From positions 1 to 32,057 of the forward strand of contig JBAYGQ010000001.1 of the NCBI GenBank assembly GCA_041666585.1: a DNA stretch of 32,057 nucleotides, in the 5' to 3' direction. The position numbers were made by a program, and so were the translations under genes. This DNA comes from Bacteroidota bacterium. Its GTDB lineage: Bacteria; Bacteroidota; Ignavibacteria; Kapaibacteriales; UBA2268. Of the stretch, positions 1,186 through 31,582 are shown one piece after another; position 1 is the stretch's first letter; each line of letters opens with the position of its first letter. The notes below the pieces were generated by a model. That model did no database searches and was not told the DNA's origin. It saw only the letters and a list, made by a program, of their open reading frames with translations.

Positions 1186-1188
1186 ATT

Positions 1189-2055: not shown

Positions 2056-2106
2056 ACTCTTTTTAAACTCATATAGTAAAGAGAATTACGATGTTAAATT
2101 TCTACT

Positions 2107-4139: not shown

Positions 4140-4143
4140 TGAA

Positions 4144-10062: not shown

Positions 10063-10072
10063 ATCAAGCCGT

Positions 10073-10081
10073 ATTATATCA
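10073..10081 (-). promoter_or_regulatory. Candidate extended -10 element (TGATATAAT) upstream of the second cytidylyltransferase and the NulO operon
   Basis: The minus strand reads TGATATAAT, ending 10 nt upstream of ATG 10062. It lies in one of only two non-coding gaps longer than 60 nt inside block A. There is no SD before the ATG. Confidence 0.3.
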
Positions 10082-10140
10082 CTAGATTGGGTTTAAATTT
10101 GTTTGAATAACTGCTTTTTGTTCCTTATCTTTTTAATAAT

Positions 10141-11682: not shown

Positions 11683-11814
11683 GAATTATGTATAAAGACT
11701 TTGAAATTTGAATTTATACATATTTGTATGGCGCCAACAGAGAACGCCCTTATAGTTATCACTAATCTAGACTCAATTTATAGGTTATTCGAAAATAAGA
11801 TTTGGAATAGAATG

Positions 11815-13907: not shown

Positions 13908-13912
13908 AAGGA

Positions 13913-17028: not shown

Positions 17029-17042
17029 ATAATGCTAGCTGT

Positions 17043-18308
17043 TTACTTTGGAAGCTGAGTGATATTTTTCGGAAACAGTAAAGAATATATCAAACCTAAA
17101 GCAAGTAAGAATTGCACTATACCCATAATAGAAATTATTGGTTCTTGCCAAAAAATTAACGGAAAAGGGTTATTGATTATACTTCTGCCGAGACCGTAAC
17201 CCGAGTAGATATTACAAAAATGAATAAAAGCGCTGATAATCCACAATATAAACAATTTCCTGTCTTTTCCGATAATAAAAATCAGTATTAACAAAAGCGT
17301 TGCTGGATAGAAATGATAAGCATGCGATCGGGTAAGAATTTGAGGCATCATAATAAAAGGTAAAGTAAATGCCCGGGTAAAAAACAAGGGCCTGTTACTC
17401 GACTTCGCTATGTAGCTTTTTATAATAAATATTGCCATGATCAAGAAAAATACTAAATATGCGCTTTTTTCTAAATAATTGTAAGGAAAAGTATAAGTAC
17501 TCAGACTGTAAATAGGTCCTTTCATATGATTAAGATTCATTATGACGGATGTAACCGTATACCATATATTTATTTCCGATGCCACAAGATAAGGCATATA
17601 TGAGGTAAATCCAAAATATAGTTGAAAAAGGTAAAAAGCGGATTTTGCTTGTAAAAAGAAATAGGTATTAAAAAGAAAGGGTAAGATCCCGAATCCAACC
17701 GTAAAACTGGTTATTTCTCGAAAACGAAAAGATATTAGCTGAAAGAAAATAAAATATAGTCCCATTGCTACAAGAGGGGCTACTATCTGTGGTTTGATGC
17801 AAAATGCGATACCCATCATTAAGCCCGCATAGAAAAATCTGTGTTTAAGATTTTTCCTAAAATCCAGAACTCCTAAAGCTAAAAGAATAAAAAACATGAA
17901 GGGTGCATCCCAAAACCCTTCCCAAGAGCCAGGAATAAAAAACCACGGATTAAGCCAGTAGACTAACGTAATTTGTATCTTATTTTTTGGAATTAACTTA
18001 TATAAAAGAAGGAGAATAAGAATTTCAAATATCAGATTTGTTGCTTTATACGGTAACCACCATAAATGAGGAATTAAAACAGCGAATTTTTCCGATATTA
18101 ACATCATTAGATAAGCTATCGGACCGTATCCACCTACGAAGCTATCCGCCAACCCTTTATTTAACGTATTTATACCCCATTCCCGATATGTATCGAAATT
18201 ATGGTTCCCGTTGAAAAAAATTCCTGCGAACCTTATAAAAAAACCGATTAGAATCAAAGAGAATAATACAGTTCTCTTATCTCGAATAAATTTAGTTAAT
18301 TTTTTCAT
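17043..18308 (-). CDS. Polytopic membrane protein, putative GT-C-fold (PimE/DUF2029-like) glycosyltransferase
   Basis: 421 aa, about 10-11 helices. First-loop motif NGNHNFDTYREWG and YWLNPWFFIPGSWEGFWDAPF resemble the D..Y..W and NP...WGQ.D motifs of polyprenol-phosphate-sugar-dependent mannosyltransferase-like GT-C enzymes. This is a by-eye comparison only. Confidence 0.7.
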   Translation of the reverse strand: MKKLTKFIRDKRTVLFSLILIGFFIRFAGIFFNGNHNFDTYREWGINTLNKGLADSFVGGYGPIAYLMMLISEKFAVLIPHLWWLPYKATNLIFEILILLLLYKLIPKNKIQITLVYWLNPWFFIPGSWEGFWDAPFMFFILLALGVLDFRKNLKHRFFYAGLMMGIAFCIKPQIVAPLVAMGLYFIFFQLISFRFREITSFTVGFGILPFLFNTYFFLQAKSAFYLFQLYFGFTSYMPYLVASEINIWYTVTSVIMNLNHMKGPIYSLSTYTFPYNYLEKSAYLVFFLIMAIFIIKSYIAKSSNRPLFFTRAFTLPFIMMPQILTRSHAYHFYPATLLLILIFIIGKDRKLFILWIISAFIHFCNIYSGYGLGRSIINNPFPLIFWQEPIISIMGIVQFLLALGLIYSLLFPKNITQLPK

Positions 18309-19027
18309 TTATTTTTTTCAGCTATAAATATAATATCCGCACCCAACAAAGATACCCACTTTCTTCTTAAGGATGCGAATATGCCGGAACATGTTATTTC
18401 TTTAATACTTAAACCGTTACGATTAAAATATTGATATATGCTCGATACGGTAAAATAATGCAGATGGCCTCCATCCCAGCCTTTTTCATCTTCAGATGTG
18501 ACTGGAAGATTACCAAGTAAAACCGCAAGTCTTCTGGGTAGAAATCCTAGATTTGGAATCTGTACTATAACCTTTCCGCGAACCTTTAATACTCGGTATA
18601 TTTCGTCCATCACTTTTATCGGATCATAAAGATGTTCCAATACAGCCACTATAGTCACTGTATCGAAATAATTATTCGGAAACCTCAGTTTTAAATCCGC
18701 GTCACCGTATTTAAAACTAACTTTTTTTCTTATATCTTCAGGAAACTGAGAATATTTTAGTTTTATAGATCTTAATCTTGATCTTGATACATCCAAACCG
18801 TATAACTTATTAAATCTATCCGAAACCTTGAAAATTAAACTGCCGCTACCACAACCAATATCCAGAAAACGCTGACCGCTGGAAATGTATTGTATTACAG
18901 TTTCCAATCGATGAACCTCGAATTTTTTAAAAAGCAAATACAGCCACCGATAGGAGCTTCTGAGTTTAGTATACTTACCTTCGTTTTTATACGTTTCGTC
19001 GTAAAACTGCTGTTTAATATTAATCAT
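18305..19027 (-). CDS. Class I SAM-dependent methyltransferase
   Basis: 240 aa. Motif I FLDIGCGSGSL, post-I YGLDVS, VTIVAVLEHLYDP. ATGA overlaps on both sides. Confidence 0.85.
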   Translation of the reverse strand: MINIKQQFYDETYKNEGKYTKLRSSYRWLYLLFKKFEVHRLETVIQYISSGQRFLDIGCGSGSLIFKVSDRFNKLYGLDVSRSRLRSIKLKYSQFPEDIRKKVSFKYGDADLKLRFPNNYFDTVTIVAVLEHLYDPIKVMDEIYRVLKVRGKVIVQIPNLGFLPRRLAVLLGNLPVTSEDEKGWDGGHLHYFTVSSIYQYFNRNGLSIKEITCSGIFASLRRKWVSLLGADIIFIAEKNK

Positions 19028-20220
19028 AACCTGTTATGAATAGAAAAATATAACTTCTCAGTATTTTTGGTCATAAAATTCAGGCTAAATCTGTCTTTTA
19101 CCATTTTCCGTCCGTTATTACCGTAGAAATTGCGATAATCAGCGCGCGACATTATTTTTATAATTCCCGAAACGATACTTTTTGTGTTCAATTCAACTAT
19201 TATACCTGAACCAAATAACTTTACTTCAGGAATATTACAGTCTCCGGATACCAACAAAGGTACTCCGGAAAATGCCGCTTCCAAAGCAGTACACGGCAAT
19301 CCTTCTGAATAGGAAGTAAGAATAAATATATCCGAACTATCAAACGCATTGTTTTTATCTTCTTCCATGAGCGACCCCGTAAAAAATACCTTTTCTTTTA
19401 ATCCATAATCAGCAATTTCATTTACGAGACTATTGTAATAATTACTATCCTCTACGGGTCCAGAAATTACTAGAATAAGATTTTTATATCTTCCTTTTAA
19501 CATACTTAGTGATTTGATTGCTAAATGAATACCTTTTTTTCTGTGGATTCTTCCGAGAAAAAGCAATATTTTGGAGTTTGATGGCAAGTGGAATTTTTTT
19601 AGGAATTTCGATGATTTATTGCGGAATATATGTATATTTTCATTTATTCCATTTGGGATTACAGAGATCTTATCTTCCTGCAAACCTAAGTTTTTAAAGG
19701 TCGTCTTCTCTCTTAAAGTAAGAGCTATAAGGCACGATGCGGTTTTTAACATACTCATTCCTCCAAGCTCAAGAAAGATTTTTTTCCATGCTACTCTTCC
19801 TTCTTCCTTCTTCATTTCTAATGTTCCGTGAGAAGTAATCAAGTATGGTATATGCATTTTCCAAGCCCAATATCCAACCCATAAATTCATCAAGGTATAA
19901 ATTTCATGAATATGTACTATATCAAATTCTTTGATATGTCTTAAAAAATGAATAAAAAATTTCGGGGAAAAGAAAAAATGGTATTTATAAGCCAAATAAT
20001 TCGAGATGTTTGAAAAATATATAACTTTTATACCGCTAATATCAATCTCTGTATTATGAGGATATCTAACCCTCTGAGCGTTATTCAGAAGATCAGTGGA
20101 ATAGATTGTTACAGCGTGACCTTTTTTTATAAGTGCTTTGGATAGGTTATAAAGCACGTTCGCGGTTCCTCCTATCGATTCCGCCGGATAAAAATACGGC
20201 GCTATATATAAGATTTTCAT
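19024..20220 (-). CDS. GT-B fold glycosyltransferase, family 4-like
   Basis: Start set at ATG 20220..20218 (MKILYIAPYFYPAESIGG), preceded by AGGGAGAAAA (Shine-Dalgarno). The ORF-track extension to 20292 overlaps the upstream gene. C-terminal SYSEGLPCTALEAAFSGVPLLVS donor-binding motif. Confidence 0.85.
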   Translation of the reverse strand: MKILYIAPYFYPAESIGGTANVLYNLSKALIKKGHAVTIYSTDLLNNAQRVRYPHNTEIDISGIKVIYFSNISNYLAYKYHFFFSPKFFIHFLRHIKEFDIVHIHEIYTLMNLWVGYWAWKMHIPYLITSHGTLEMKKEEGRVAWKKIFLELGGMSMLKTASCLIALTLREKTTFKNLGLQEDKISVIPNGINENIHIFRNKSSKFLKKFHLPSNSKILLFLGRIHRKKGIHLAIKSLSMLKGRYKNLILVISGPVEDSNYYNSLVNEIADYGLKEKVFFTGSLMEEDKNNAFDSSDIFILTSYSEGLPCTALEAAFSGVPLLVSGDCNIPEVKLFGSGIIVELNTKSIVSGIIKIMSRADYRNFYGNNGRKMVKDRFSLNFMTKNTEKLYFSIHNRL

Positions 20221-20248
20221 TTTTCTCCCTATTTTTAGCTCACTCACA

Positions 20249-22837
20249 TTACACAGGCAGTTCCTTTTCCAAATAACATTCATCACCCTCAAATAACACT
20301 TTTATGTTAACACGCGTTTTGTAATTTAGTATATCGGGTAACTCTATATGGATGAGATTGTTTTGCCAACCGCTTCTCGTTACAATCATAGATCCGTAAT
20401 ATTCTTTTTTTATCATTCTCCACGATCTTACTTTATCCTCTAAATTCCTTTCTTCAACGAAGATATCGTTTATTTTCTTTTCTCCTTTGTCAATTCGGAT
20501 ATTAATACCGGTATATCGGTTTCTATCTAAGTCAACAATCATAAAATCGTTATCCCCTTCATAAGGATATTTTATTGATACGTCTCTAGCATTTAGACTG
20601 ATATCAGACTGACAATATCCATTATAAAGATCAAAACTATTTCCGATAATTACCGGATTAGATTTTTGAATATAAGAATTTAATGTTGATGTGTAATTTG
20701 GATAAACATTTTTTGTATCGTCCCAATTAATATATATTGGATGAAAATTATTCGGTTGATTGTAAAAAGTGAGATATAACGCATCGGGCCCATTAGTAAT
20801 GATCGATGCATCCGGATGTTTGTTAAGATAGTTTCTTAATTGATTATATATATTCTCATAAAAAACCTTGTCTATTGGAAACAATCTGATCAATTTTAAT
20901 ACTGACAAATCATTAACTGTCAAATAATTATCATTCAATCTCATGACCCCCCATTGAATACGTTTTATTATTACAGGGCTAAATACGGAAAAAAACATAG
21001 ACAGTAAAATAATTATTCTTACATATGAATCTATTATTGTATGATTATTATGGAGATTATTTTTATTATTGAAATTACACATACGCATGCTTAGTGCGTA
21101 AAAAACATATACAGTTACTCCAATCATAGGATAAGCTGCCCAATATACATGCCACTCACAAACAACAGGATAATATTGCGTCCAAGATGCTAATGAAACT
21201 AGAATTATAACCAATAACAACTCTCTTTTTGAATTAGTCTTTCTCTCTTTCAAAAAATGATATATCGTCCAAATGAAAAAAATTATACAAATAATTGGTA
21301 TAAGCACCCATAGAAAATCCATAAAAGTGGGAAAAAGATCATTCAAAATTTCAAGAGACAGATATCCTTTCCCAACTCTCTGTCCAAATTGGTAAGGTAG
21401 TATAACCGATTGTAAGAACCAGTCATTTAATGCTCGGTTTGAAATAAGCCATATAATAAATGAAAAATGTATAATGACAGTTCCAGATATAAAATACGCC
21501 AGATTCTTTAAAATACTAGAAATACTTTGAAATTTATTTTTTATCGTTTTTAGTGCGAAATATCCTAAATAGGCTAGGAATAGGAAAATACCAACCGGTT
21601 GTCTACACCAAAAGGTCAAAGCAACCGCTACGCCTGATAGAAATAAATATTTTTGTTTGCCTTGTTTTGACTCAATACTTTTTATAAATATATATAACGA
21701 TAATGTTTGGAAAAACAATGAATATACTGAAGACCAAGGAATTACAATCCAGATCAGGTAAGTTCCCAACAAAATAAGCATAAAGCAAGAAAGTGTTGCT
21801 AAATATCGAGGCATGATTCTTACCCAAATAAACCAAAGGACAACAGATGATAAAGCATAGAACAGAGCGGTGAATAGTTTGATAACAATCAGATAATTTC
21901 CGAATATTTTTAAAGCGCCAGCTTGAATATATGTTGTCAGTGCACCGTATTGTGTAAAAGTGTCTCTAAAAAGCACTTTTCCGGATACGACATCAAGAGC
22001 GGGCTTCAACATAATTCCATCATGATGAGGGTCTACGGATATAAAAGAAAACAGTCCGGAAACCAAAAAAGTAGCGATAAATATAATAAACGGAAGTAAT
22101 AGATATAAGTGTTTAATTTTACGAATAGTCTCGATATAACGATTAAGCATTAAACCGAACCGTTCAAATCTGTCCAAAATAAAAACCAATATCATCGGAA
22201 TTATAGACAGGAAAATAATGAGGATAAGTTCAGTCAAATTAATGTAGTGGGAAAATTTTAGTATCAGATAGTTGAATAATAATCCGGGATCATGAAAAAG
22301 CTCGGCTTTAGAATATTTATATTTTGTTTCGAATACGGGATTAAAGGCACTAATTGTTATAGCATTTCCGGGTTTACCGTTTAACGATTCAATTTCAAAA
22401 ATATAGGTCTTTCCGGAGGAATTAGGGATTACTGGAAAACCAAAAGTGAATAATTCGTCAGGTAAAAATTGATCTGCATGATATAGATTGTCATAATACC
22501 ACTCGTCCGTATTTTTTTCTTTTAACCGAAAATCAATCAATTCTGTATTTTTGCCTCCATAGGAGTTTCCGAAACGAAAAGCAAGTATTCCGAGGTTGTT
22601 CTCGCGGGATTCAAATTCGCCAATTATTTTTTCACCTTTTAAAATTTCGCCCTTTTTCCATTGTGCTAGATTAGTTAGAGCGTGTTTTTCTACATTTATC
22701 GTAAAATTTTTGAATCTGATATCATCTCTTGCGTTTGTGAATATTACTGAGCAGAAAATTATCAAAAATATACAAAAACAAATAGGAAAACAGAAAAATG
22801 TCTTCGATCTTAAATCTAATACTTTGTATTCTTTCAT
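20249..22837 (-). CDS. Large (862 aa) polytopic membrane protein: N-terminal anchored ectodomain, multi-helix core and C-terminal soluble domain; putative GT-C-fold glycosyltransferase
   Basis: One N-terminal helix (FFCFPICFCIFLIIFCSVIF), a roughly 170-aa beta-rich segment, at least 12 hydrophobic helices and a roughly 240-aa hydrophilic tail. The loop motif VDPHHDGIMLKPALDV loosely recalls the FDEVHFGK loop-1 motif of the PMT/GT39 family. GGGAG lies just upstream of the ATG. Confidence 0.7.
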   Translation of the reverse strand: MKEYKVLDLRSKTFFCFPICFCIFLIIFCSVIFTNARDDIRFKNFTINVEKHALTNLAQWKKGEILKGEKIIGEFESRENNLGILAFRFGNSYGGKNTELIDFRLKEKNTDEWYYDNLYHADQFLPDELFTFGFPVIPNSSGKTYIFEIESLNGKPGNAITISAFNPVFETKYKYSKAELFHDPGLLFNYLILKFSHYINLTELILIIFLSIIPMILVFILDRFERFGLMLNRYIETIRKIKHLYLLLPFIIFIATFLVSGLFSFISVDPHHDGIMLKPALDVVSGKVLFRDTFTQYGALTTYIQAGALKIFGNYLIVIKLFTALFYALSSVVLWFIWVRIMPRYLATLSCFMLILLGTYLIWIVIPWSSVYSLFFQTLSLYIFIKSIESKQGKQKYLFLSGVAVALTFWCRQPVGIFLFLAYLGYFALKTIKNKFQSISSILKNLAYFISGTVIIHFSFIIWLISNRALNDWFLQSVILPYQFGQRVGKGYLSLEILNDLFPTFMDFLWVLIPIICIIFFIWTIYHFLKERKTNSKRELLLVIILVSLASWTQYYPVVCEWHVYWAAYPMIGVTVYVFYALSMRMCNFNNKNNLHNNHTIIDSYVRIIILLSMFFSVFSPVIIKRIQWGVMRLNDNYLTVNDLSVLKLIRLFPIDKVFYENIYNQLRNYLNKHPDASIITNGPDALYLTFYNQPNNFHPIYINWDDTKNVYPNYTSTLNSYIQKSNPVIIGNSFDLYNGYCQSDISLNARDVSIKYPYEGDNDFMIVDLDRNRYTGINIRIDKGEKKINDIFVEERNLEDKVRSWRMIKKEYYGSMIVTRSGWQNNLIHIELPDILNYKTRVNIKVLFEGDECYLEKELPV

Positions 22838-22863
22838 CGCTCCCTTTCAGACAAATATCCTAA

Positions 22864-22885
22864 ATTATACTTCTTTTGTTATAAT
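22864..22885. promoter_or_regulatory. Candidate back-to-back divergent -10 boxes between the 862-aa membrane protein gene and rfbF
   Basis: TATAAT at 22880-22885 on the + strand, 8 nt before the rfbF ATG, with no SD. TATAAT on the - strand at 22869..22864, 26 nt before ATG 22837, with GGGAG in the leader. The AT-rich background makes chance matches likely. Confidence 0.3.
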
Positions 22886-22893
22886 TGCATGAA

Positions 22894-23670
22894 ATGAAAA
22901 CAATTATCCTATGCGGAGGAGCAGGAACACGGTTGAGAGAAGAAACGGAATTTAAACCTAAACCGATGGTTTTAATTGGCAATAAACCTATCATTTGGCA
23001 CATAATGAAGTATTTTTCAACTTTTGGATATAACGAGTTTATACTTGCACTCGGTTATAAAGCTGATTATGTCAAGGATTTCTTTCTAAATCAAAAAGCA
23101 TTTACCTCTGATTTTACCCTTGATACAAGTAACCATAAAACGGTCTTCTATTTAGAAAATAGGTCAAATGTAGACAACTTCAAAATTACCTTCGTTGACA
23201 CAGGACTCCATACCCTACCCGGTGAAAGAATTCTTATGTGTGAAAAATATATCCCAAAAAATGATAAATATTTTATGGTAACTTATGGAGATGGAGTAAC
23301 TGATATAAAAATTGATGATTTGATTAAATTTCATAAAAAACAGAAAACTATCGGAACAATTAGCGGAATACATCCACGATTTAAATATGGGGTTACAAAA
23401 ACTGATAATGACAATTTTGTGACGGATTTCAATGAAAAACCAGTACTTTCGGATTGGGTAAATGGAGGCTATATGATTTTTGATAAACGATTCTTCGGAT
23501 ATATCAAACCCGGAGAGACTGAACATAACGCCCTAAAAAGGTTATCAAATAAAAAACAATTATCATTATATAAGCATGAAGGATTCTGGTTTGCCGTAGA
23601 TACGAACAAAGAACTGGATGAGTTGAATCAATTGTGGAATGCGGGAAATCCGCCATGGAAAAAATGGTAA
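22894..23670 (+). CDS. rfbF: Glucose-1-phosphate cytidylyltransferase
   Basis: MKTIILCGGAGTRLREETEFKPKPMVLIGNKPIIWHIMKYFSTFGYNEFILALGYKADYVKDFF is near-canonical RfbF/DdhA. Start taken at ATG 22894. The ORF-track start at 22885 is a TTG 3 codons upstream. Confidence 0.9.
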   Translation: MKTIILCGGAGTRLREETEFKPKPMVLIGNKPIIWHIMKYFSTFGYNEFILALGYKADYVKDFFLNQKAFTSDFTLDTSNHKTVFYLENRSNVDNFKITFVDTGLHTLPGERILMCEKYIPKNDKYFMVTYGDGVTDIKIDDLIKFHKKQKTIGTISGIHPRFKYGVTKTDNDNFVTDFNEKPVLSDWVNGGYMIFDKRFFGYIKPGETEHNALKRLSNKKQLSLYKHEGFWFAVDTNKELDELNQLWNAGNPPWKKW

Positions 23671-24626
23671 CTAATTTTTACGGTATAGCTGTTTTAGTCA
23701 CTGGAGGAACCGGATTTGTCGGTTCTCATCTTGTTGAAGAATTGATTCGACTTAAGGCTCGGGTTATAACAACATCTCACTATTCTCACCCCAAATCATA
23801 CTTTTTCTCTCAGGAATTAGGTAAAAAGGCAACCGTTGTTAAAACTAACATAGGCAACATTCATAATATTTATTCCTTATTGAATCACTACAAAGTCGAG
23901 TATATTTTTCATTTAGCAGCCCAACCATTAGTAGAAGTAGGATTTCGCTACCCTAAACGCACCTTGTATACAAATGTATTAGGTACCATAAATATTTTAG
24001 AAGCCGCAAGAAAATACAATAAAATCAGAGGAATTGTGGTCGCTTCCTCTGATAAAGCATACGGACCTCTCAATAAGGCCAAATACCTGGAAACTGATTC
24101 GTTATTGGGTGAACAACCTTATGAAGTATCCAAATCATGTGCAGATCTGATTTCTCAGGCTTATGTCAAAACATATGATTTACCCATTGTTGTTACCCGT
24201 TTTGGTAATATTTATGGAGAAGGAGATTTACATTATAACCGGATTGTGCCGGGAATAATGAAAGCTATTATCTGTAATAAAGTTTTAAAAATTAGAAGCA
24301 ACGGAAAATATATTCGAGATTATTTATATGTCAAAGACGTCATCAGCGGATACATCAATTTAATAACTAATATCGATAAGACAAAAGGGGAAGCATTCAA
24401 TTTCGGATCTGTAGAGAGTTTATCTGTAATTGATCTTATCAAGTTAATTGAAAAATCGTTAGACAAAAAGATCTCATATGAAATACTTGATAGTGTAAAA
24501 AATGAAATTCCTTATCAGTCCTTGGATGATTCAAAAATAAAAAATAGATTAGGCTGGCAGCAAGAATACAATCTTGCGTCTACCTCAAAAAATATATACT
24601 CGTGGTATAAAAAAACATTAGTTTAG
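23655..24626 (+). CDS. rfbG: Extended-SDR NDP-sugar 4,6-dehydratase, probable CDP-glucose 4,6-dehydratase
   Basis: VLVTGGTGFVGSHL, SSDKAYG, PYEVSKSCADL (the SDK.Y and SK.CA.L patterns resemble RfbG/DdhB). It lies immediately downstream of rfbF and overlaps its end. The start could be ATG 23655 or 23664. Confidence 0.75.
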   Translation: MEKMVTNFYGIAVLVTGGTGFVGSHLVEELIRLKARVITTSHYSHPKSYFFSQELGKKATVVKTNIGNIHNIYSLLNHYKVEYIFHLAAQPLVEVGFRYPKRTLYTNVLGTINILEAARKYNKIRGIVVASSDKAYGPLNKAKYLETDSLLGEQPYEVSKSCADLISQAYVKTYDLPIVVTRFGNIYGEGDLHYNRIVPGIMKAIICNKVLKIRSNGKYIRDYLYVKDVISGYINLITNIDKTKGEAFNFGSVESLSVIDLIKLIEKSLDKKISYEILDSVKNEIPYQSLDDSKIKNRLGWQQEYNLASTSKNIYSWYKKTLV

Positions 24627-25579
24627 ACCTGTATGTTTAATCTCTTCTTGTGATCGTTTAGGATCTCGTCTATTACGTAAGTAGGACGATCTTTCACTTC
24701 TTCGAAAATTATTTGGATGTATTTCCCTAGGATACTTATTCCGAGCATTTGGATACCGCCGAAGAATATTATCGCTGTAAGTAATGGGATAGAAGCGTTA
24801 ACTGGATTTCCAATTAAAAATACGGTAATAAGATAAAATAATAAAAAAATAAAGGAGACAATTACTAACATGAAACCAAGGGTCGTCATTACGTCTAAAG
24901 GTACGAAAGAAAAACCCAAAATTCCTCTTTGTGAATCTTTTATGTAATCCAGTAAATTATTTTTACTATTACCGTATCGTCTGGCTTTACGTTCATAAAT
25001 CACCTCTTTTACCGAAAATCCTGCCCATGCTCTGAGTCCTCTGAAGAACCGGTTTCTTTCAGGTAAATCGTTGATAACATTTAGTACTTTTCTATCTAAT
25101 AAACAAAAACTACCTGCGTTAAGAGGCATATTAATATTGGCGAGTTTATTAAATATCTTATAAAAACTTTTTCTTACAATTCGCATCAGTAAAGTATCTT
25201 GAATTTTATTACGTACTCCTATTACTACTTGAGATCCTTTTTCCCACTCTCTAATAAATATCGGAATAACTTCAGGCGGATCCTGGAGATCACAATCTAC
25301 GATTGTCACAGCATCTCCTTGTGCTTGCATCATTGCTGCTTGTGATGAATACTCAGAGGTAAAATTCCTAGACATCAATAGCACCGTAACTTTTTTATCC
25401 TTTTTTGCGATTTTTTTCAGGATGCTTCGTGAATTATCCTGACTACAATTATCCGTAAATATTATTTCGTAATCGTAATTTCGAAGAGTATTAAATAGTT
25501 TGACAATTTCTGTATAAGCGTTTTCAATATTTAGCTCTTCATTATATACGGGAATAATTACGGTTATTAATTTCTTCAT
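24623..25579 (-). CDS. GT2 polyprenol-phosphate glycosyltransferase (GtrB/ArnC/DPM1-like) with two C-terminal TM helices
   Basis: 318 aa. VIIPVYNEELNIE, FTDNCSQDNS, TIVDCDLQDPPE. C-terminal helices LGFMLVIVSFIFLLFYLITVFLI and LLTAIIFFGGIQMLGISILGKYI. Confidence 0.88.
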   Translation of the reverse strand: MKKLITVIIPVYNEELNIENAYTEIVKLFNTLRNYDYEIIFTDNCSQDNSRSILKKIAKKDKKVTVLLMSRNFTSEYSSQAAMMQAQGDAVTIVDCDLQDPPEVIPIFIREWEKGSQVVIGVRNKIQDTLLMRIVRKSFYKIFNKLANINMPLNAGSFCLLDRKVLNVINDLPERNRFFRGLRAWAGFSVKEVIYERKARRYGNSKNNLLDYIKDSQRGILGFSFVPLDVMTTLGFMLVIVSFIFLLFYLITVFLIGNPVNASIPLLTAIIFFGGIQMLGISILGKYIQIIFEEVKDRPTYVIDEILNDHKKRLNIQV

Positions 25580-26370
25580 ACGTTTGAATTTTTCACTCTT
25601 TTTTTCAGCATTTGTATCCTCTTATCATCTTCTAGGAATATTCGCGAATAATAATTTTTTTTATTCTCTAACCACAAAAGTTCAAAAGTGTTAGCTTTGA
25701 TAATACCATCTCCTAACTTTTGGAAACTTTTTGGCACTTTAAAAACTACTTTTCTTGTTTCGAAATAGTCTAATAAGTTTTTTGACGATAATTTCTTTAT
25801 GAAAGGAACTGCCTCTAAAGCGATCCCCCCACCCATAGCCGTTTTTAAACCCTTCTTCTTAGCCTTAATAAATATATCTTCCGCAATTTTGTAAATCTGA
25901 TCACAGTTTATTTGGTCTCGAGACAAACCTAAAGAACCCGACAAATCAACTCTACCCAGAGTGATTTTTCCTAAAATCTTCATAAGTTTTACGTTCAAGA
26001 TATCGTGAATATTATGATACGCCTGAATTGTTTCAATGTTAACTCCAAAAAGAATAGTTTTTCTGAGATCCTCCGGATAATGAGTTATCACTGCTTGAAG
26101 GAATTTTTCCAAGGCATAGGCACTTTCTACCATAGGTGCAACAAGCCCAGAGACTCCGATATGCTGGGATTCGAACATATCTGTAATAGCTTCAGGTCCC
26201 CCAATTTTTAGCACTAAACCTAACCCAACTCTTTCTACGATTTCCTTCAATCTCATAATTTCGCACAATCTCGACGCCTCGGCTTCAAATTCTGCTTTTA
26301 CTTCCACCACACCATAATGCTTCTTTAATTCAGTTAACACGTTAACCATCTTTATTTCCAAAGTGTTCAT
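25576..26370 (-). CDS. HpcH/HpaI aldolase / citrate-lyase-beta-like TIM-barrel protein
   Basis: 264 aa. APMVESAYALEKF (metal-binding Glu strand), FGVNIETIQAYHNIHDIL and LGRVDLSGSLGL (G..DLS.SLG) follow the order and spacing of family motifs. This is a by-eye assignment. Confidence 0.7.
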   Translation of the reverse strand: MNTLEIKMVNVLTELKKHYGVVEVKAEFEAEASRLCEIMRLKEIVERVGLGLVLKIGGPEAITDMFESQHIGVSGLVAPMVESAYALEKFLQAVITHYPEDLRKTILFGVNIETIQAYHNIHDILNVKLMKILGKITLGRVDLSGSLGLSRDQINCDQIYKIAEDIFIKAKKKGLKTAMGGGIALEAVPFIKKLSSKNLLDYFETRKVVFKVPKSFQKLGDGIIKANTFELLWLENKKNYYSRIFLEDDKRIQMLKKRVKNSNV

Positions 26371-26412
26371 ATTACTTTAAAATAGTTAATTTTAATAATA
26401 ATTTAACAATAT

Positions 26413-27507
26413 TTAGTTAATAAAACTCGAGATACATTGATAAAATTCTGAATAATCGGATTTATACTCGTCTACATTATAATCTAATATTTTATTCATT
26501 CTTAAATTATTATCAGGCAATACTAATGCGAGGTCTTTTGTAGTTCTCTTTTTATCGTACATCATTTTTCTTAATATCCCGTCTCTATTAAAATAATCTT
26601 TTTTTATTTTAAGGATTTTAAAGGGAATTCCGGGAAATAATATTTTTTTATTAATATAATTAAATATATTTTTGTTCAACCATCCTTTTCTGAAAGAAAC
26701 TAAATTTGAGAATATAATTCCGAAAATAATAGCAGTTCCGTGAGGAATATTATAATCACTATATGATTCCAATGCATGACCGAAACAATGTCCATAGTTA
26801 AGAAGATTTCTCTTTCCATAATCCTTCTCATCACCAATCATGTAATCTAATTTTATTTTCATTGATTCCTTTATTATATTAATAAGAATTTCATTATCTC
26901 TGCAACTTATTAACTTGTTAAGCTTGGTATGAATTTGTTCCAACTTATTCATTGAATTTTTATCCATAAGTAGTAATTTAATTATCTCTCCCAAACCGCT
27001 ATAGTAATCTATTTCTTTCAAAGTTTTTAGAAATGAGACGTCTATGATAATATCTTCAGGAGAGTAAAATGTTCCCAGAACGTTCTTGTAGGATTTAAAA
27101 TTGAGCGATGTTTTTAACCCTATGGCACTATCTGCCTGTGAAAGCAAAGTAGTTGGAATATATATCCAACGAATACCTCTATATAATGTTGATGCTGTAA
27201 ATCCTACAACATCTTGATTGATACCTCCACCGAAAGAAATTACCTTCAAATTTTTTTTAGCGGAGAATTTAAGCAGTTTATTAGCCAAATGGGATACGGT
27301 GGAAAAGTTTTTTGTTTTTTCGTCTAGAGTAAGAATAATTATGTGCTTCTTCGAAAAACCATTAAAAATATTATTTTTATATAATTTATATACGTTTCTC
27401 CCTACAACAATTATCGAATTTTGATTATTCGCCCAGAGTTCTTTGATGAAATCTAAATTTTCAGAAAATTTAACATTTATGTTGCCAATTTTGGTTCTTA
27501 TTAACAT
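26413..27507 (-). CDS. 3-dehydroquinate synthase-like sugar-phosphate cyclase superfamily protein (divergent)
   Basis: 364 aa. FGGGINQDVVGFTASTLYRGIRWIYIPTTLLSQADSAIGLKTSLNF..YKNVLGTFYSP, GLGEIIKLLL, GKRNLLNYGHCFGHALE, IPHGTAIIFGI. NAD-binding and Glu/His/His metal motifs are present. GGK->GLK and HGEAV->HGTAI deviate from housekeeping AroB. Confidence 0.8.
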   Translation of the reverse strand: MLIRTKIGNINVKFSENLDFIKELWANNQNSIIVVGRNVYKLYKNNIFNGFSKKHIIILTLDEKTKNFSTVSHLANKLLKFSAKKNLKVISFGGGINQDVVGFTASTLYRGIRWIYIPTTLLSQADSAIGLKTSLNFKSYKNVLGTFYSPEDIIIDVSFLKTLKEIDYYSGLGEIIKLLLMDKNSMNKLEQIHTKLNKLISCRDNEILINIIKESMKIKLDYMIGDEKDYGKRNLLNYGHCFGHALESYSDYNIPHGTAIIFGIIFSNLVSFRKGWLNKNIFNYINKKILFPGIPFKILKIKKDYFNRDGILRKMMYDKKRTTKDLALVLPDNNLRMNKILDYNVDEYKSDYSEFYQCISSFIN

Positions 27508-27514
27508 ACATTTT

Positions 27515-28183
27515 TTACTGACAAGTAAAACCTCCGTCTACAATGATATTTGCACCGTTTATATAAGTATTTTTATCCGAAATTAAAAAACACACGACCT
27601 CAGCAATTTCATGAGGTGCCGCGAATCTCCCCATTGGAATACCTTGAGCAAGTAAAGCATTTTTTTGATCGCTATTTTTCCTTGTCAAATCCGTATCGGT
27701 AAATCCAGGTGAAACGGAATTAACCAATATATTATACGGACCGAGCTCTAAGGCTAAAGCTTTTGTAACACCATTAATACCGTGTTTTGTTGCAGTATAT
27801 AAAACCTGTTTTTTTCTCGCTACCAACCCAAAAATTGAGCTTATATTAACGATACGTCCCCACTTTTGTTTTTTCATTGTACTGATTAAACCTCCAATAA
27901 GGATAATTGGAGCGATTAGATTTGTTTCAAAATGTTTATAGCAATTTTCTATATCAATTTCATCGACAAATTGAGGTATATTTATTCCCGCGTTATTTAT
28001 AATAGCGTCAATATGCAGGTTTTTATTTCTTTGAATATACTGCTGGACTGAGCGTCTATCCGAAAGATCAAGTTCTTGTCGTCTCGGCGAAATAACGTAA
28101 TACTTTTCGTTTTTTAATTTATCACATACCTCTTTTCCTATCCCTCTGGATGCACCGGTTAGTAAAATTGTTCTATTATTCAT
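27515..28183 (-). CDS. Classical short-chain dehydrogenase/reductase (FabG-like ketoreductase)
   Basis: 222 aa. LLTGASRGIGKEV, NNAGIN, YTATKHG (YxxxK), IVDGGFTCQ. Confidence 0.85.
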   Translation of the reverse strand: MNNRTILLTGASRGIGKEVCDKLKNEKYYVISPRRQELDLSDRRSVQQYIQRNKNLHIDAIINNAGINIPQFVDEIDIENCYKHFETNLIAPIILIGGLISTMKKQKWGRIVNISSIFGLVARKKQVLYTATKHGINGVTKALALELGPYNILVNSVSPGFTDTDLTRKNSDQKNALLAQGIPMGRFAAPHEIAEVVCFLISDKNTYINGANIIVDGGFTCQ

Positions 28184-28192
28184 TTTACGATT

Positions 28193-29101
28193 TTAAATTT
28201 TAATTAAATTTATATAAGGATCTTTAATAATCTTATCTTTATCTAAGCTTGATATATTTTCTAAGTACCATTGATAAAGCAACCTAATCCCCTTTTCGAT
28301 ACTAGTGAATTTGAAATTCGGTAATTCGTTTTTTAACCTACTATTATCTGTAGTGTATTCCTTATTTAAATTTTTATTTCTTATAATTATTTCTGATTTA
28401 TGGCGGCTGATTTTATTTATTATCTTCGATATCGACAGCAAGTCAATTTTTTGGCCTGTCCCGATATTATATATGTTATGTTCAGTAGAACGATTGATAA
28501 AATAATCAACAATTGTAACCAGATCATCAGCATATAAATAATCAAAGTATACGTTCTGCACAATTTCGATCGGCAATTTATATATATTTTTTACTATTGC
28601 GTTGGAAATAAACTTAAATAAATAATTTTCATATTTACCATACACTCCAAACAATCTTAAACAAACAATCTTACTAGAATTACAAATATATTTTGAACAC
28701 ACATACTTATAAAATCCATACTCGTCACCGGGCACAGATCCATCGAAATCTTCCTCTTTTATTCTAACAATTGGATTCCTTTTGTCATATTCCGCACCTG
28801 AACCGAAAGTGATAATTTTATTTACACAATTTGAGCATCTTACTATGTTAAAAAATATCCGAAGATTAGTTTCTAATACTTTATTAAGGTTTAAAGTATC
28901 TCTTCCTCCACCCCTATTTGCACAATGAATGATAATTTCGATATTATTGTCTTTAATGTAATTTTCAACTTTTGCGGTATCTAACAAATCAAGCTCATCA
29001 TGCGTTGGGGAAAAAAGATTATACTTTTTTTCGAAATGTTCACATAAATTTCTTCCTATAAAACCTGAGGCACCGGTAATAAATATTTTTCTTTTACTCA
29101 T
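28193..29101 (-). CDS. Extended-SDR NAD-dependent NDP-sugar epimerase/reductase
   Basis: 302 aa. IFITGASGFIGRNL, HCANRGG, YKYVCSK (YxxxK). Confidence 0.8.
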   Translation of the reverse strand: MSKRKIFITGASGFIGRNLCEHFEKKYNLFSPTHDELDLLDTAKVENYIKDNNIEIIIHCANRGGGRDTLNLNKVLETNLRIFFNIVRCSNCVNKIITFGSGAEYDKRNPIVRIKEEDFDGSVPGDEYGFYKYVCSKYICNSSKIVCLRLFGVYGKYENYLFKFISNAIVKNIYKLPIEIVQNVYFDYLYADDLVTIVDYFINRSTEHNIYNIGTGQKIDLLSISKIINKISRHKSEIIIRNKNLNKEYTTDNSRLKNELPNFKFTSIEKGIRLLYQWYLENISSLDKDKIIKDPYINLIKI

Positions 29102-29731
29102 TTATCGGATCCTCGCAAAGATTAAAGTCTCAGTTTTAAATAATGAAGTAATTTTTGTGATTTTTGTATACCCGGCTAAATTTTGAACTTTCTCAATTTC
29201 AAAATGTTTGTTTATTACATTTATGAACTTATTTACCGTCCAATTATGTACGTGTGTTTTATCAAAAAATGATTTTCGTTGCAACAACATATTGATAATA
29301 TTTAGTAAATAATACTGTCTATATAATGAAAAGATTAGCACTCCACTCTTTTTTATTATAGATGGAATTACTTTATCCAGGAATTTCTCTCTATCCGAAT
29401 CTTTCATATGTTCGAGCATATTCAAACAGACGATAGCGTCTGCTTTTTTCAATTTCAATTTTCTTAAAGATATATCGGTTGCGTCTATGTTATAAAATCT
29501 ATTACTTTTATATTTATTTTTTGCATATTTTATAGCTTCAGAATTTATATCATACCCAACTGCCCCGAGAAAATTGGTGATATACCCCGTCCCGCAGCCA
29601 ATGTCATATATCAAAGGATTATCGAATCTGGATAAGACCTGATACTTGATCTGACGATACAATTCAACGTTATTCAAGTGTGAACTATTTTGAAGCGTGT
29701 AATATGATGTTTCCTTTCTCACTTTTTCCAT
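29102..29731 (-). CDS. Class I SAM-dependent methyltransferase
   Basis: 209 aa. IYDIGCGTGYI motif I, GYDINSEAI, IVCLNMLEHMKD. It overlaps the upstream gene by 13 nt. Confidence 0.8.
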   Translation of the reverse strand: MEKVRKETSYYTLQNSSHLNNVELYRQIKYQVLSRFDNPLIYDIGCGTGYITNFLGAVGYDINSEAIKYAKNKYKSNRFYNIDATDISLRKLKLKKADAIVCLNMLEHMKDSDREKFLDKVIPSIIKKSGVLIFSLYRQYYLLNIINMLLQRKSFFDKTHVHNWTVNKFINVINKHFEIEKVQNLAGYTKITKITSLFKTETLIFARIR

Positions 29732-31563
29732 AATGGAATTAACATATTTTTTACTAATTCATCTTTAGGAAGAAAAGGTGACATATCTTCAAGTGGAGGG
29801 GATGTAAAATTTCCCTCTGCGTCCTTTTTTGCGACTAATTTTGGATTGACAATCATTTCTTTAATCATATTAATATCGCATACGATCGGACCAGGATAAT
29901 TTAACACATATTTGATTTTATTACGCATTTCAGCGTGATTATGAACTCTTACCGCCTTTATTCCATAGGCTTCTGCAATTTTTACATAATCGGGACAACT
30001 CACTCCTGATTTTGGATCTGATGCCGTGTGCATTCCGCTGAATAAATTATTCTGCGTATTTCTTATAGATAAATATCCATCATTACTATAGACAAATAAT
30101 TTAATCGGGAGTTTATAATGCTTTATTACCTGCAACTCATGAATATTAAGTTGAAGACTACCATCTCCTTCAAAACATAGTACTCTTCTGCCTCGATCTG
30201 CAAACGCCGCACCTATTGCGGCAGGCAATCCATACCCCATCTGTGAACATCCATTATTCAAAATAACTCGCTGACCATTTTTAATATATAAGGCTTGATA
30301 AGAACAATTTAACGGCCCTGTTCCGTTAGATACGACTATTATCTCGTCATTTTCAATTAGCTTTCCTAGTGTGTCTATCATGCAATATGGATTGACGAAT
30401 TTCTTTTCGCTCCAATATTCCTTTAATACTATCGGATACTTTGAATTCATATTCTTACAATAATCTAACCAATATGAGATATCCAAATTTAATTTTATTT
30501 TTGATAGCTGATGTGTCATTTCTGAAATAAATTGTTTTGCATCGTAATTTACGGGTAAATCCGTTTTAATAAATGGTTTTTTCAACTCACTTCGGTCAAT
30601 ATCAACGGTTACTTTATATGCGTCACGTGCAAATGATTTATAGGAAAAACCTATGGTTCTTATATCCAATCTAGCGCCAATTGAAATCAATAGATCGCAG
30701 TTTTGGATGATGAAATTAGCTGCTCTTTGACCAAGAGTGTGTGCTCGGCCAAAATACTGCGGATGTGAAGAAGGAATAATATCATAACCGGCATAACTGC
30801 TTAGAACGGGAATTTTCATTAAACTTATGAGATTTAGGAATTCTTTCACTGCACCGCTCAAACGAATTCCGTTACCTGCATATATTACCGGTCTTTTCGA
30901 TGATTTTAACTTTGTTAATATTTGTAAAACAATCTCAGTTAATTTTTTTGGGTTTTTCTCAAATGGGATTGTAACCTCAGACTCCTTGAATCTCCTAAGT
31001 TTGTTCCTATCAACATGAACCCCTTGAACGTCTATCGGAATATCTAACCAAACGGGTCCCTGTCTACCGGATTTTGCTAAAAAGAGCGCTTTTTCAAGGT
31101 GATACCGAACATCATTCGGATTCATAATCGTAACCGCATATTTTGTCACCGGTTTTACCATATCAATGATATTAATTTCCTGGTCACCTAGTTGCCTATA
31201 TCCCCTTCCAGCTCCAATAGTTTCTCTCTTAACCTGACCGGATATAACAAGCATAGGGATGGAATCAAGCCACGCCCCTACAACACCTGTAATAGCATTC
31301 GTACCACCAGGTCCGGTTGTTACTAAACAAACGCCAATATCTTCCGAAATCCTCGAATATGCCTCGGCAGCGATGGCACACGCCTGTTCATGATGATTAC
31401 AAACGTAATGAATTTTCTTACTTTTGCCTACAGAGTCAATTAAGTGAATATTTCCCCCACCCGAAATAAGAAATATATGCCTCACGTTAATTTCTTCTAA
31501 AAAGGAAATAATATAATCTGAGATTTTTACAACTTGTGGCTTATTGCCGATTACTTTTCGCAT
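29719..31563 (-). CDS. Thiamine-diphosphate-dependent enzyme of the acetolactate-synthase large-subunit family, YerE-like candidate
   Basis: Three-domain layout: N-terminal ISDYIISFLEEINVRHIFLISGGGNIHLIDS...VTTGPGGTNA, then the C-terminal ThDP motif GDGSLQLNIHELQ...VYSNDGY. Start placed at ATG 31563. The ORF-track start at 31569 is a TTG. Confidence 0.85.
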   Translation of the reverse strand: MRKVIGNKPQVVKISDYIISFLEEINVRHIFLISGGGNIHLIDSVGKSKKIHYVCNHHEQACAIAAEAYSRISEDIGVCLVTTGPGGTNAITGVVGAWLDSIPMLVISGQVKRETIGAGRGYRQLGDQEINIIDMVKPVTKYAVTIMNPNDVRYHLEKALFLAKSGRQGPVWLDIPIDVQGVHVDRNKLRRFKESEVTIPFEKNPKKLTEIVLQILTKLKSSKRPVIYAGNGIRLSGAVKEFLNLISLMKIPVLSSYAGYDIIPSSHPQYFGRAHTLGQRAANFIIQNCDLLISIGARLDIRTIGFSYKSFARDAYKVTVDIDRSELKKPFIKTDLPVNYDAKQFISEMTHQLSKIKLNLDISYWLDYCKNMNSKYPIVLKEYWSEKKFVNPYCMIDTLGKLIENDEIIVVSNGTGPLNCSYQALYIKNGQRVILNNGCSQMGYGLPAAIGAAFADRGRRVLCFEGDGSLQLNIHELQVIKHYKLPIKLFVYSNDGYLSIRNTQNNLFSGMHTASDPKSGVSCPDYVKIAEAYGIKAVRVHNHAEMRNKIKYVLNYPGPIVCDINMIKEMIVNPKLVAKKDAEGNFTSPPLEDMSPFLPKDELVKNMLIPLWKK

Positions 31564-31568
31564 ATTCA

Positions 31569-31582
31569 AGTATTATAATACT
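31569..31582. promoter_or_regulatory. Perfect 14-bp palindrome AGTATTATAATACT carrying a TATAAT on each strand, in a 30-bp divergent intergenic region
   Basis: TATAAT at 31574-31579 on the + strand, 14 nt before the rfbH ATG. TATAAT on the - strand at 31577..31572, 8 nt before ATG 31563. Neither start codon has a Shine-Dalgarno sequence. Confidence 0.35.

Follow-up and report, generated by a model that had tools for sequence, protein, structure and literature searches.

A unifying route to the acyl-branched sugars has been proposed, and in part demonstrated, by Steitz et al. 2022 (PMC9306805). In it, a gamma-hydroxy alpha-keto acid is formed by a pyruvate aldolase; a thiamine diphosphate (ThDP) enzyme of the YerE-like kind decarboxylates this acid and adds it to C4 of cytidine diphosphate (CDP)-4-keto-3,6-dideoxyglucose, and the branch carbonyl is then reduced by a reductase (PMC9306805). 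The scheme covers erwiniose, caryophyllose and gastriose, with mmar_2331 described as a gene of the aldolase/citrate lyase family; ErwE and MMAR_2332 prefer gamma-hydroxy alpha-keto acids, and pyruvate is rejected by ErwE (PMC9306805). Here we analyse two adjacent genes of the 32,057-bp contig JBAYGQ010000001.1 (that whole stretch of DNA is called the window below), one encoding an HpcH/HpaI-like aldolase-fold protein and the other a protein similar to 3-dehydroquinate synthase (DHQS). The two genes very probably belong to a caryophyllose-type cassette for an acyl-branched CDP-sugar and are not a free-standing aldolase/cyclase pair, and the "cyclase" more probably removes the terminal phosphate of a side-chain precursor than builds a carbocyclic sugar.

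Caryophyllose, 3,6,10-trideoxy-4-C-(1-hydroxyethyl)-decose, carries on its C4 an acyclic hydroxylated C6 chain that ends in a methyl group; Burkholderia caryophylli makes it together with the carbocyclic sugar caryose. The caryophyllose sub-cluster of the Mycobacterium marinum lipooligosaccharide (LOS) locus, MMAR_2327-MMAR_2336, has a gene set that matches the window's by annotation names. The RefSeq names (supplement of PMC12395582) are glycosyltransferase family 87 (GT87) for MMAR_2327, 3-dehydroquinate synthase family protein for MMAR_2329, aldolase/citrate lyase family for MMAR_2331, ThDP-binding for MMAR_2332, glycosyltransferase family 2 (GT2) for MMAR_2333, glucose-1-P cytidylyltransferase for MMAR_2334, RfbH for MMAR_2335 and CDP-glucose 4,6-dehydratase for MMAR_2336. 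Mutants in MMAR_2331 (Delta-MMAR_2331), MMAR_2332 or MMAR_2333 all halt at LOS-II* and have no caryophyllose, and the GT2 MMAR_2333 is needed for caryophyllose addition. An earlier note on this DNA had stated that neither of the two enzyme families has a role in dideoxyhexose synthesis; for the aldolase this is wrong, as the MMAR_2331 knockout and its published rationale show. In our literature search MMAR_2329 turned up in one paper and its preprint, neither of which treats its function, no function was described for a DHQS-like gene in a glycan or branched-sugar context, and neither a DHQS-like gene nor a phosphatase step was mentioned in the papers found on acyl-branched sugar clusters.

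The window carries a surface-glycan locus with Wzm/Wzt genes and several glycosyltransferases (Table 1). Both reading frames under study are real, run in the same direction on the minus strand and had been correctly assigned to their enzyme families. They lie among seven minus-strand genes that extend from 31569 down to 24623 with intergenic spacing of -13 to +42 nt, in the order ThDP enzyme, S-adenosylmethionine (SAM)-dependent methyltransferase, NAD epimerase/reductase, short-chain dehydrogenase/reductase (SDR), DHQS-like, HpcH-like and GT2, the start of the last overlapping the HpcH-like gene by 4 nt. Cytidylyltransferase-like (RfbF) and CDP-glucose 4,6-dehydratase-like (RfbG) genes at 22885-24626 are divergent to this operon, and an RfbH fragment at the contig end is also present. 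The window thus has the RfbF-, RfbG- and RfbH-type genes of a caryophyllose-type cluster as well as an aldolase, a ThDP carboligase and a reductase together in one operon, an arrangement that is kept in other loci. The ThDP carboligase and the link to the adjacent CDP-4-keto-sugar genes had been overlooked when the pair was first described.

The 616-residue ThDP enzyme is most similar in the PDB to 8rph (448 bits) and 5ahk (280 bits), the plant and bacterial acetolactate synthases (ALS) scoring about 243 bits or less, and all NCBIfam ALS models are far below their cut-offs. In the 8rph chain the GDG motif for ThDP reads CDG, the reported hallmark of the YerE-like enzyme JanthE. By these comparisons the window protein is a YerE-like enzyme and not an acetolactate synthase, and it would graft an acyl branch onto a CDP-4-keto sugar. 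The RfbH fragment is 52% identical over 148 amino acids to the product of L029:5996-7309, which itself scores 704.7 bits on the NCBIfam RfbH model NF011936. We note that the RfbH-like gene is divergent from the ThDP gene and completes the gene set for a CDP-3,6-dideoxy-4-ketohexose.

A scan of one genome per species found at least 542 places that encode a relative of the HpcH-like protein. Neighbours were surveyed by tblastn of the window proteins on the best 80 of these species-level loci, and all neighbour counts given here are from the 43 loci flanked on each side by 6 kb or more, a neighbour being a gene that lies no further than 9 kb from the HpcH-like gene. The scan matches come from the candidate-phyla-radiation lineages Levybacteria, Roizmanbacteria, Gottesmanbacteria and Saccharibacteria and from Acidobacteria, Planctomycetes, Elusimicrobia, Chloroflexi, Nitrospira, Microcystis and gut Bacteroidales, among others. 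A ThDP enzyme is present in 41/43 loci, RfbH in 31/43, RfbF, RfbG and the NAD reductase in 29/43 each, GT2 in 27/43, and a DHQS-like gene in 25/43, with the SDR also present in 23 of these 25 (one DHQS homologue, in L030, is probably a true aroB; see below). Co-occurrence of the two genes in other species, which the earlier note had suggested should be surveyed, is therefore found, and the pairing is far beyond chance. The constant partners of the aldolase are the YerE-like carboligase and the CDP-dideoxyhexose genes, and the DHQS-like gene with its SDR is a frequent optional module. The SDR/DHQS-like/HpcH-like arrangement itself recurs in more than 20 loci from many phyla, candidate-phyla-radiation lineages included.

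Cassettes without the DHQS-like and SDR genes have a haloacid dehalogenase (HAD) phosphatase gene, of type IIA or of the IA phosphoglycolate-phosphatase-like type, directly after the HpcH-like gene (examples in Table 1). Among cultured hosts, Gabonibacter massiliensis has the HAD type, and Microcystis aeruginosa and Effusibacillus consociatus have the DHQS type. The two alternatives exclude each other: 25 loci have only the DHQS-like gene, 14 only the HAD phosphatase, none both and four neither (Fisher p = 4e-8), the split becoming 24, 14, 0 and 5 if the L030 gene is counted as a true aroB. In a tree of the aldolases the DHQS-type and HAD-type loci interleave (HAD-type L046 stands beside DHQS-type L028 and L051, and L066 beside the Microcystis loci), and therefore the same aldolase product appears to be passed to either module. 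Since both the DHQS-like/SDR module and the HAD enzyme would remove phosphate, the simplest reading is that this product is a phosphorylated 3-deoxy-2-ulosonate; the earlier proposal that the aldolase builds a deoxy-ulosonate phosphate fits this strict either/or. A transaldolase/fructose-6-phosphate-aldolase (FSA)-like gene, which may supply an aldose phosphate (erythrose-4-P), is found, among the surveyed loci, only in the cassettes of Levybacteria L001:7376-8242 and Sulfotelmatobacter L002:4665-5525 (same contig as L007).

Three loci show other arrangements of the HpcH-like gene. An Omnitrophica metagenome-assembled genome (MAG) has two HpcH-like genes in tandem in its cassette (L071:9172-10792). 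A search of plasmids gave only distant homologues, about 40% identical, in other contexts. One of these, 40% identical, is on Ilyobacter polytropus pILYOP01 (L085, 159322-160095) with genes for aconitase, an isocitrate/isopropylmalate dehydrogenase-family protein, PrpF, a 2-hydroxyacid dehydrogenase and a carboxylate transporter as neighbours, which suggests a catabolic lyase branch of the family that acts in organic-acid catabolism. Another, 39.5% identical, is on a (mega)plasmid of Novosphingobium humi (L086, locus 7097-13820), where the genes run in the order RfbF-like, RfbG-like, HpcH-like, Wza-like exporter, unknown ORF and GT2; no ThDP gene is found there within 9 kb, and this variant departs from the aldolase-plus-ThDP rule.

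The HpcH-like protein is a weak and partial match (residues 64-175) to Pfam HpcH_HpaI (PF03328; 34.7 bits against a gathering cut-off of 25) and has no NCBIfam match; a single-sequence search of the PDB found no aldolase, and a profile search was marginally better. Its AlphaFold2 model (pLDDT 92) has the triose phosphate isomerase (TIM)-barrel fold of the phosphoenolpyruvate (PEP)/pyruvate superfamily, and the best PDB neighbours of the model by Foldseek are HpaI, HpcH and YfaU (E ~1e-8, TM ~0.6, 15-18% identity). The invariant E113 and D142 align with the HpaI metal ligands E149 and D175 by hhalign and hmmsearch, and the P-x-V-x-S strand motif of the HpaI class aligns as well (the numbering of the HpaI sequence used in one alignment agrees with the known D42, H45 and R70). 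An N-terminal K-x-E-x-E-x-E-x-x-R motif is invariant in the family and is not known from HpaI. Depending on the seed, the family has 1,926 to 5,753 database matches at E <= 0.001, and it is unusually conserved, with 45-70% identity across phyla; the best 120 matches to an actinobacterial seed are all metagenomic proteins. The protein recorded at NCBI for the window gene has 257 amino acids and starts seven codons downstream of the first ATG of the reading frame (26350-26370). The 264-residue form that starts at 26370 is probably the correct one, because homologues keep the longer N-terminus (MNxLExKM).

The DHQS-like protein matches the N and C domains of Pfam DHQ_synthase with 115 and 103 bits. 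Its top NCBIfam model is TIGR04425, which it matches over the full length with 360.9 bits, below the cut-off of 400 (a member from the main group of cassettes scores 369.7 bits, also below it); this model is named 'AroB-related putative sugar phosphate phospholyase (cyclizing)' and is a hypothetical equivalog without an assigned substrate, and no paper citing it was found in our literature search. The aroB model TIGR01357 gives 253.1 bits, below the equivalog cut-off of 305. The nearest solved structures are all genuine DHQS (3clh, 1xag and 1dqs), and the protein is 31-33% identical to true DHQS, which are 36% identical to each other. The NAD motif and the Glu/His/His metal ligands are kept. 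R110, D126, K132, N142, E174, K177, K219, R233, N237, H240, H244 and H256 are invariant in the cassette members and K319/K320 are present in 39 of 40, and the same residues are found in the Helicobacter pylori and Staphylococcus aureus DHQS; in all, the 14 DHQS active-site equivalents are invariant or nearly so across the 40 cassette homologues. We take the Aspergillus nidulans counterparts to be R130, D146, K152, N162, E194, K197, K250, R264, N268, H271, H275, H287 and K356, and Arg233 and Lys219 presumably correspond to the DHQS residues that bind the carboxylate of 3-deoxy-D-arabino-heptulosonate 7-phosphate (DAHP). Because the substrate and metal residues of DHQS, including this Arg and Lys, are conserved, an acidic 3-deoxy-ulosonate phosphate is favoured as the substrate, in agreement with what had been argued from the window sequence.

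Beside the catalytic residues the cassette proteins differ from AroB by a family signature: Q98, W114, a residue other than Gly at position 131 (A, S or L in 36/40 members), S134, G173, D229 and a residue other than Glu at position 258 (Q, I or L in 38/40). The motifs GKRNLLNYGH, GLK and HGTAI quoted in the earlier note are present in the window protein; GLK and HGTAI had been taken as deviations from housekeeping AroB, and they do mark positions (131 and 258) that differ systematically from AroB, though not as single conserved residues. In a tree the cassette proteins form a clade apart from true AroB, and the view that the window gene is not a housekeeping aroB is upheld by score, context and phylogeny alike. 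We note that the DHQS homologue of L030 (17903-18697, minus strand) lies 7 kb from its cassette on the opposite strand, clusters with the AroB of H. pylori and is probably the true aroB of its genome, so that the cassette and AroB kinds can coexist in one genome.

The following pathway would account for these genes. RfbF, RfbG and RfbH are predicted, by homology and context, to make a CDP-4-keto-(3,)6-deoxyhexose. From pyruvate and an aldehyde the aldolase would form a 4-hydroxy-2-oxo acid, as has been published for homologous clusters; the aldehyde is presumably an aldose phosphate, with erythrose-4-P as the simplest candidate, and a DAHP-like 3-deoxy-heptulosonate 7-phosphate would then result. 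Phosphate could then be lost in two interchangeable ways, of which the HAD phosphatase would leave a terminal hydroxyl. The way used in the window would be NAD-dependent oxidation at C5 by the DHQS-like enzyme, beta-elimination of the phosphate and re-reduction to 3,7-dideoxy-hept-2,6-diulosonate, which the SDR would reduce at C6 to 3,7-dideoxy-heptulosonate. The terminal CH2-OPO3 would in this manner become a CH3, the omega-methyl of caryophyllose, and 3,7-dideoxy-heptulosonate would be the exact donor for the caryophyllose branch, a six-carbon chain with hydroxyls at 1, 3, 4 and 5 and a methyl end. The ThDP enzyme would decarboxylate this acid and add to C4 of the keto sugar, the reductase would then reduce the branch carbonyl, the extra methyltransferase would methylate the product, and the ArnC-like GT2 and the membrane glycosyltransferase of the GT-C class would probably pass the sugar via polyprenyl phosphate to the glycan. 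Deoxygenation by the DHQS-like enzyme would explain its obligate pairing with an SDR, the methyl group at the end of the caryophyllose chain, why MMAR_2329 is in that cluster and the origin of the '4-deoxytetrose' unit required by the published scheme. We hold this explanation as a whole, cluster membership and mechanism taken jointly, with moderate confidence; for the deoxygenation mechanism on its own the chances seem to us about even.

Several points weigh against this explanation. The DHQS-like family retains each residue of established importance in true DHQS, the DHQS enol intermediate is said (Knowles and Bartlett) to cyclise readily unaided, and the NCBI family name says '(cyclizing)'; that the DHQS-like enzyme avoids ring closure is an assumption, and a cyclising and a non-cyclising outcome cannot be separated by sequence alone. 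We know of no knockout or assay of any DHQS-like member. Among the surveyed loci, four of the 43 have neither the DHQS-like nor the HAD gene. For the HpcH-like protein both aldolase activity and the choice of pyruvate rather than PEP as donor are putative. On alignment the protein keeps the Glu and Asp metal ligands; the essential Arg70 of HpaI is replaced, its aligned place (in a weak stretch of the alignment) being taken by an invariant Lys55, 24 residues before the P-M-V motif where Arg70 is 22 before it. In the same weakly aligned part His45 of HpaI is probably absent. The C7 chain length is deduced from the conservation of the DHQS site, the caryophyllose precedent and the transaldolase/FSA-like gene of L001 and L002, and from these only. 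Orthology between the window and the M. marinum and Rhodopseudomonas palustris clusters is drawn from annotation names and gene order, not from alignment, and MMAR_2330 is assumed to be the SDR.

That the DHQS-like enzyme truly cyclises, whether on a free DAHP-like acid or on a phosphorylated branch already grafted onto the sugar, is unlikely in our judgement. The first of these forms is the model of the earlier note, in which a deoxy-ulosonate phosphate made by the aldolase is closed by the DHQS-like enzyme into a carbocycle resembling dehydroquinate or a cyclitol, which the SDR and the methyltransferase tailor into a glycan unit of its own. The complete DHQS active site, late-step residues included, would suit this model, as would the naming of the best NCBIfam model as a cyclising phospholyase, the genuine DHQS nature of all the nearest solved structures, and an SDR, the natural partner for reducing a ring ketone. 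Yet there is no conserved gene to activate or transfer a carbocyclic acid, and a dehydroquinate- or quinate-like carbocycle could not be the donor of the ThDP partner because it is not an alpha-keto acid. A simple phosphatase, moreover, replaces the DHQS-like and SDR genes beside near-identical aldolases, and M. marinum has the same gene set and an LOS for which no carbocyclic sugar is described in the literature found, the caryophyllose branch being acyclic and methyl-ended. We therefore regard this model as improbable.

Equally improbable is a short-branched, yersiniose-type sugar made from pyruvate alone, with the HpcH-like, DHQS-like, SDR and HAD proteins making or recycling some other metabolite (for example a non-sugar substituent) or with an HpcH-like protein that is no aldolase. 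The replacement of HpaI Arg70 by Lys and the weak similarity to characterised aldolases leave room for this, and the Novosphingobium megaplasmid has RfbF, RfbG and HpcH-like genes with no ThDP gene nearby. Against it stand the specific loss of caryophyllose in the MMAR_2331 knockout, the preference of ErwE and MMAR_2332 for extended acids with the rejection of pyruvate by ErwE, and the near-universal adjacency of the HpcH-like and ThDP genes.

In the second form of cyclisation the ThDP enzyme would transfer a phosphorylated branch, and phosphate elimination and ring closure by the DHQS-like enzyme would follow on the CDP-sugar. The product would be a caryose- or bradyrhizose-like sugar, bicyclic or fused to a carbocycle. 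DHQS-type chemistry does end with an intramolecular aldol reaction, the biosynthesis of the caryose that B. caryophylli makes beside caryophyllose is unknown, and the DHQS-like and SDR genes adjoin the GT2 gene in many loci. The conserved Arg233 and Lys219, presumed equivalents of the carboxylate-binding residues of DHQS, nevertheless argue for a free ulosonic acid; caryose is hydroxylated on all three bridging carbons by our own analysis of its structure, unlike the CH2 that would derive from pyruvate, and the M. marinum product is not bicyclic. We consider such late action quite improbable.

That the DHQS-like gene is the organism's shikimate aroB, in the locus by chance beside an unrelated catabolic aldolase, is very improbable: the identity to true DHQS comes near their mutual identity and the Ilyobacter homologue of the HpcH-like protein does lie in a catabolic context, but TIGR04425 scores better than the aroB model, the gene is translationally packed between the SDR and aldolase genes, the same arrangement recurs across phyla, and the cassette members stand apart as a clade marked by signature substitutions while the AroB-like gene of L030 falls with H. 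pylori AroB. Candidate-phyla-radiation lineages, in which the cassette also occurs, generally lack aromatic amino-acid synthesis, and on all these grounds we reject housekeeping aroB. A phosphonate pathway (a PEP-mutase-like protein, a ThDP decarboxylase and a group III alcohol dehydrogenase) was likewise rejected, there being no PEP_mutase signal, a ThDP enzyme of the three-domain YerE/ALS type and a DHQS match far above that to iron-containing alcohol dehydrogenases.

The remaining genes of the operon and its flanks are listed in Table 1. The nearest structures to the 302-residue reductase are dTDP-4-dehydrorhamnose reductase and GDP-fucose synthase, and it is the candidate YerF-like reductase of the branch carbonyl. 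The methyltransferase probably acts on the sugar or its branch; homologues of it are found in none of the 43 well-flanked cassettes. On NCBIfam models the GT2 protein scores 232 bits with PgfS and 133 bits with ArnC, both below the cut-offs. The GT-C protein probably acts on the periplasmic side, where it would move the sugar from its lipid carrier to the glycan, and GT87, YfhO or PMT_2 genes are present in related loci. Among the genes of the contig there is none for an E3 reductase.

Table 1. Features of the window, with examples of the HAD phosphatase genes of related loci
Feature	Coordinates	Strand	Basis or remarks
HisH-like glutamine amidotransferase and HisF-like cyclase (paralogues)	520-2055	-	edge of the glycan locus
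Nonulosonic-acid gene set	2107-10062	-	Polysacc_synt_2 dehydratase, DegT aminotransferase, PglD-like acetyltransferase, NeuC-like 2-epimerase, NeuB, SDR, two CTP_transf_3 cytidylyltransferases, GFO/IDH oxidoreductase
513-aa protein	10141-11682	-	no Pfam match at E <= 0.001
Wzm/Wzt	11815-13952		
421-aa protein	17043-18308	-	no Pfam match at E <= 0.001
GT-C (PMT_2/ArnT-like) membrane glycosyltransferase, 862 aa	20249-22837	-	Pfam PMT_2, 32.7 bits
Glucose-1-phosphate cytidylyltransferase-like (RfbF), 261 aa	22885-23670	+	best model TIGR02623, 249 bits (cut-off 300)
CDP-glucose 4,6-dehydratase-like (RfbG), 330 aa	23634-24626	+	best model TIGR02622, 198 bits (cut-off 278); GDP_Man_Dehyd, Epimerase
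GT2 polyprenyl-phosphate glycosyltransferase (ArnC/GtrB/PgfS-like), 318 aa	24623-25579	-	Glycos_transf_2
HpcH/HpaI-like class II (metal) aldolase-fold protein, 264 aa	25576-26370	-	Pfam, fold search
DHQS-like NAD/metal sugar-phosphate lyase, 364 aa	26413-27507	-	Pfam, NCBIfam, PDB
SDR, 222 aa	27515-28183	-	adh_short_C2, 145.7 bits
NAD-dependent epimerase/reductase-family protein, 302 aa	28193-29101	-	Pfam Epimerase, RmlD_sub_bind
SAM-dependent methyltransferase, 209 aa	29102-29731	-	Pfam Methyltransf_11/12/25
YerE-like ThDP-dependent carboligase, 616 aa	29719-31569	-	TPP_enzyme N, M and C domains
RfbH-like CDP-6-deoxy-4-hexulose 3-dehydrase (E1), N-terminal 154 aa	31594-32057	+	runs off contig end
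HAD phosphatase, related locus	L059:10800-11591		
HAD phosphatase, related locus	L041:10824-11477		
HAD phosphatase, related locus	L060:10785-11459		

Elsewhere in the glycan locus there is a complete-looking nonulosonic-acid gene set of the legionaminic/pseudaminic type, and the HisH/HisF-like pair at its edge resembles, we presume, the WbuY/WbuZ-type pairs of acetamidino or amino-sugar modification. The region 11815-31569 is syntenic with L003/L006 (CAZFNL010000137.1) over the cassette and the adjacent GT4, AsnB-like, GT4, Wzm, Wzt block; CAZFNL010000137.1 is labelled 'uncultured Gammaproteobacteria' and the window contig Bacteroidota, and the GT2 and RfbF proteins of the two are 70% identical. 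The likely cause is either that the entire glycan locus was transferred horizontally or that the binning or the taxonomy is in error.

Caryophyllose and other long-branched C10-C13 sugars are rare constituents, of immunological relevance, in the surface glycans of mycobacteria and Gram-negative bacteria, and their side-chain precursors have so far only been proposed. The window very probably adds a low-GC MAG to the known clusters for acyl-branched CDP-sugars of the caryophyllose type, and this cassette, with at least 542 places at one genome per species, has an extremely wide distribution. Its DHQS-family enzyme and SDR together make up an integral module that is swappable with a phosphatase, a pattern for which we found no explanation in the literature and which offers an origin for the omega-deoxy end of caryophyllose, namely phosphate elimination from a DAHP-like intermediate. 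If this is correct, a DHQS homologue is used as a phosphate-eliminating deoxygenase and not as a cyclase, and the presence of DHQS-like and SDR genes or of a HAD phosphatase gene would allow the end of the branch, CH3 or CH2OH, to be predicted from sequence. If instead the enzyme does cyclise, carbocyclic surface sugars of the caryose/bradyrhizose kind would be made in hundreds of lineages, and these loci would be the first to provide carbocyclic glycan units with a genetic basis.

The erwiniose (ErwE/F/I/J), gastriose (MyGE/MygF/MygI), R. palustris CGA009 and yersiniose (YerE/YerF) systems have a logic in common with the window: the acceptor is a CDP-4-keto-3,6-dideoxyhexose, the carboligase is a YerE-like ThDP enzyme, and with them go a reductase and, as the source of an extended alpha-keto acid, a pyruvate aldolase, except that yersiniose, unlike the window cassette, needs no aldolase. 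For erwiniose the aldolase belongs to the BphI/DmpG type and is partnered by an acetaldehyde dehydrogenase, whereas that of the window is HpcH-like, and the R. palustris branched-sugar cluster has a methyltransferase, as the window does. The HpcH-like protein has the fold and the Glu/Asp ligands of HpaI, HpcH and YfaU and differs from them by Lys55 and the probable loss of His45. The DHQS-like protein has in common with AroB both Pfam domains, the NAD motif, the metal ligands and the equivalents of the DAHP-contacting residues; it differs from AroB in its glycan-cassette context with an SDR partner and in its proposed outcome, deoxygenation without ring closure. Relative to the M. marinum sub-cluster the window has an extra methyltransferase, a GT-C enzyme of the PMT_2 type and not of the GT87 type, and a different gene order, and the acceptor in the window is a polysaccharide of the ABC-transporter type in a low-GC MAG, whereas that in M. 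marinum is a trehalose glycolipid.

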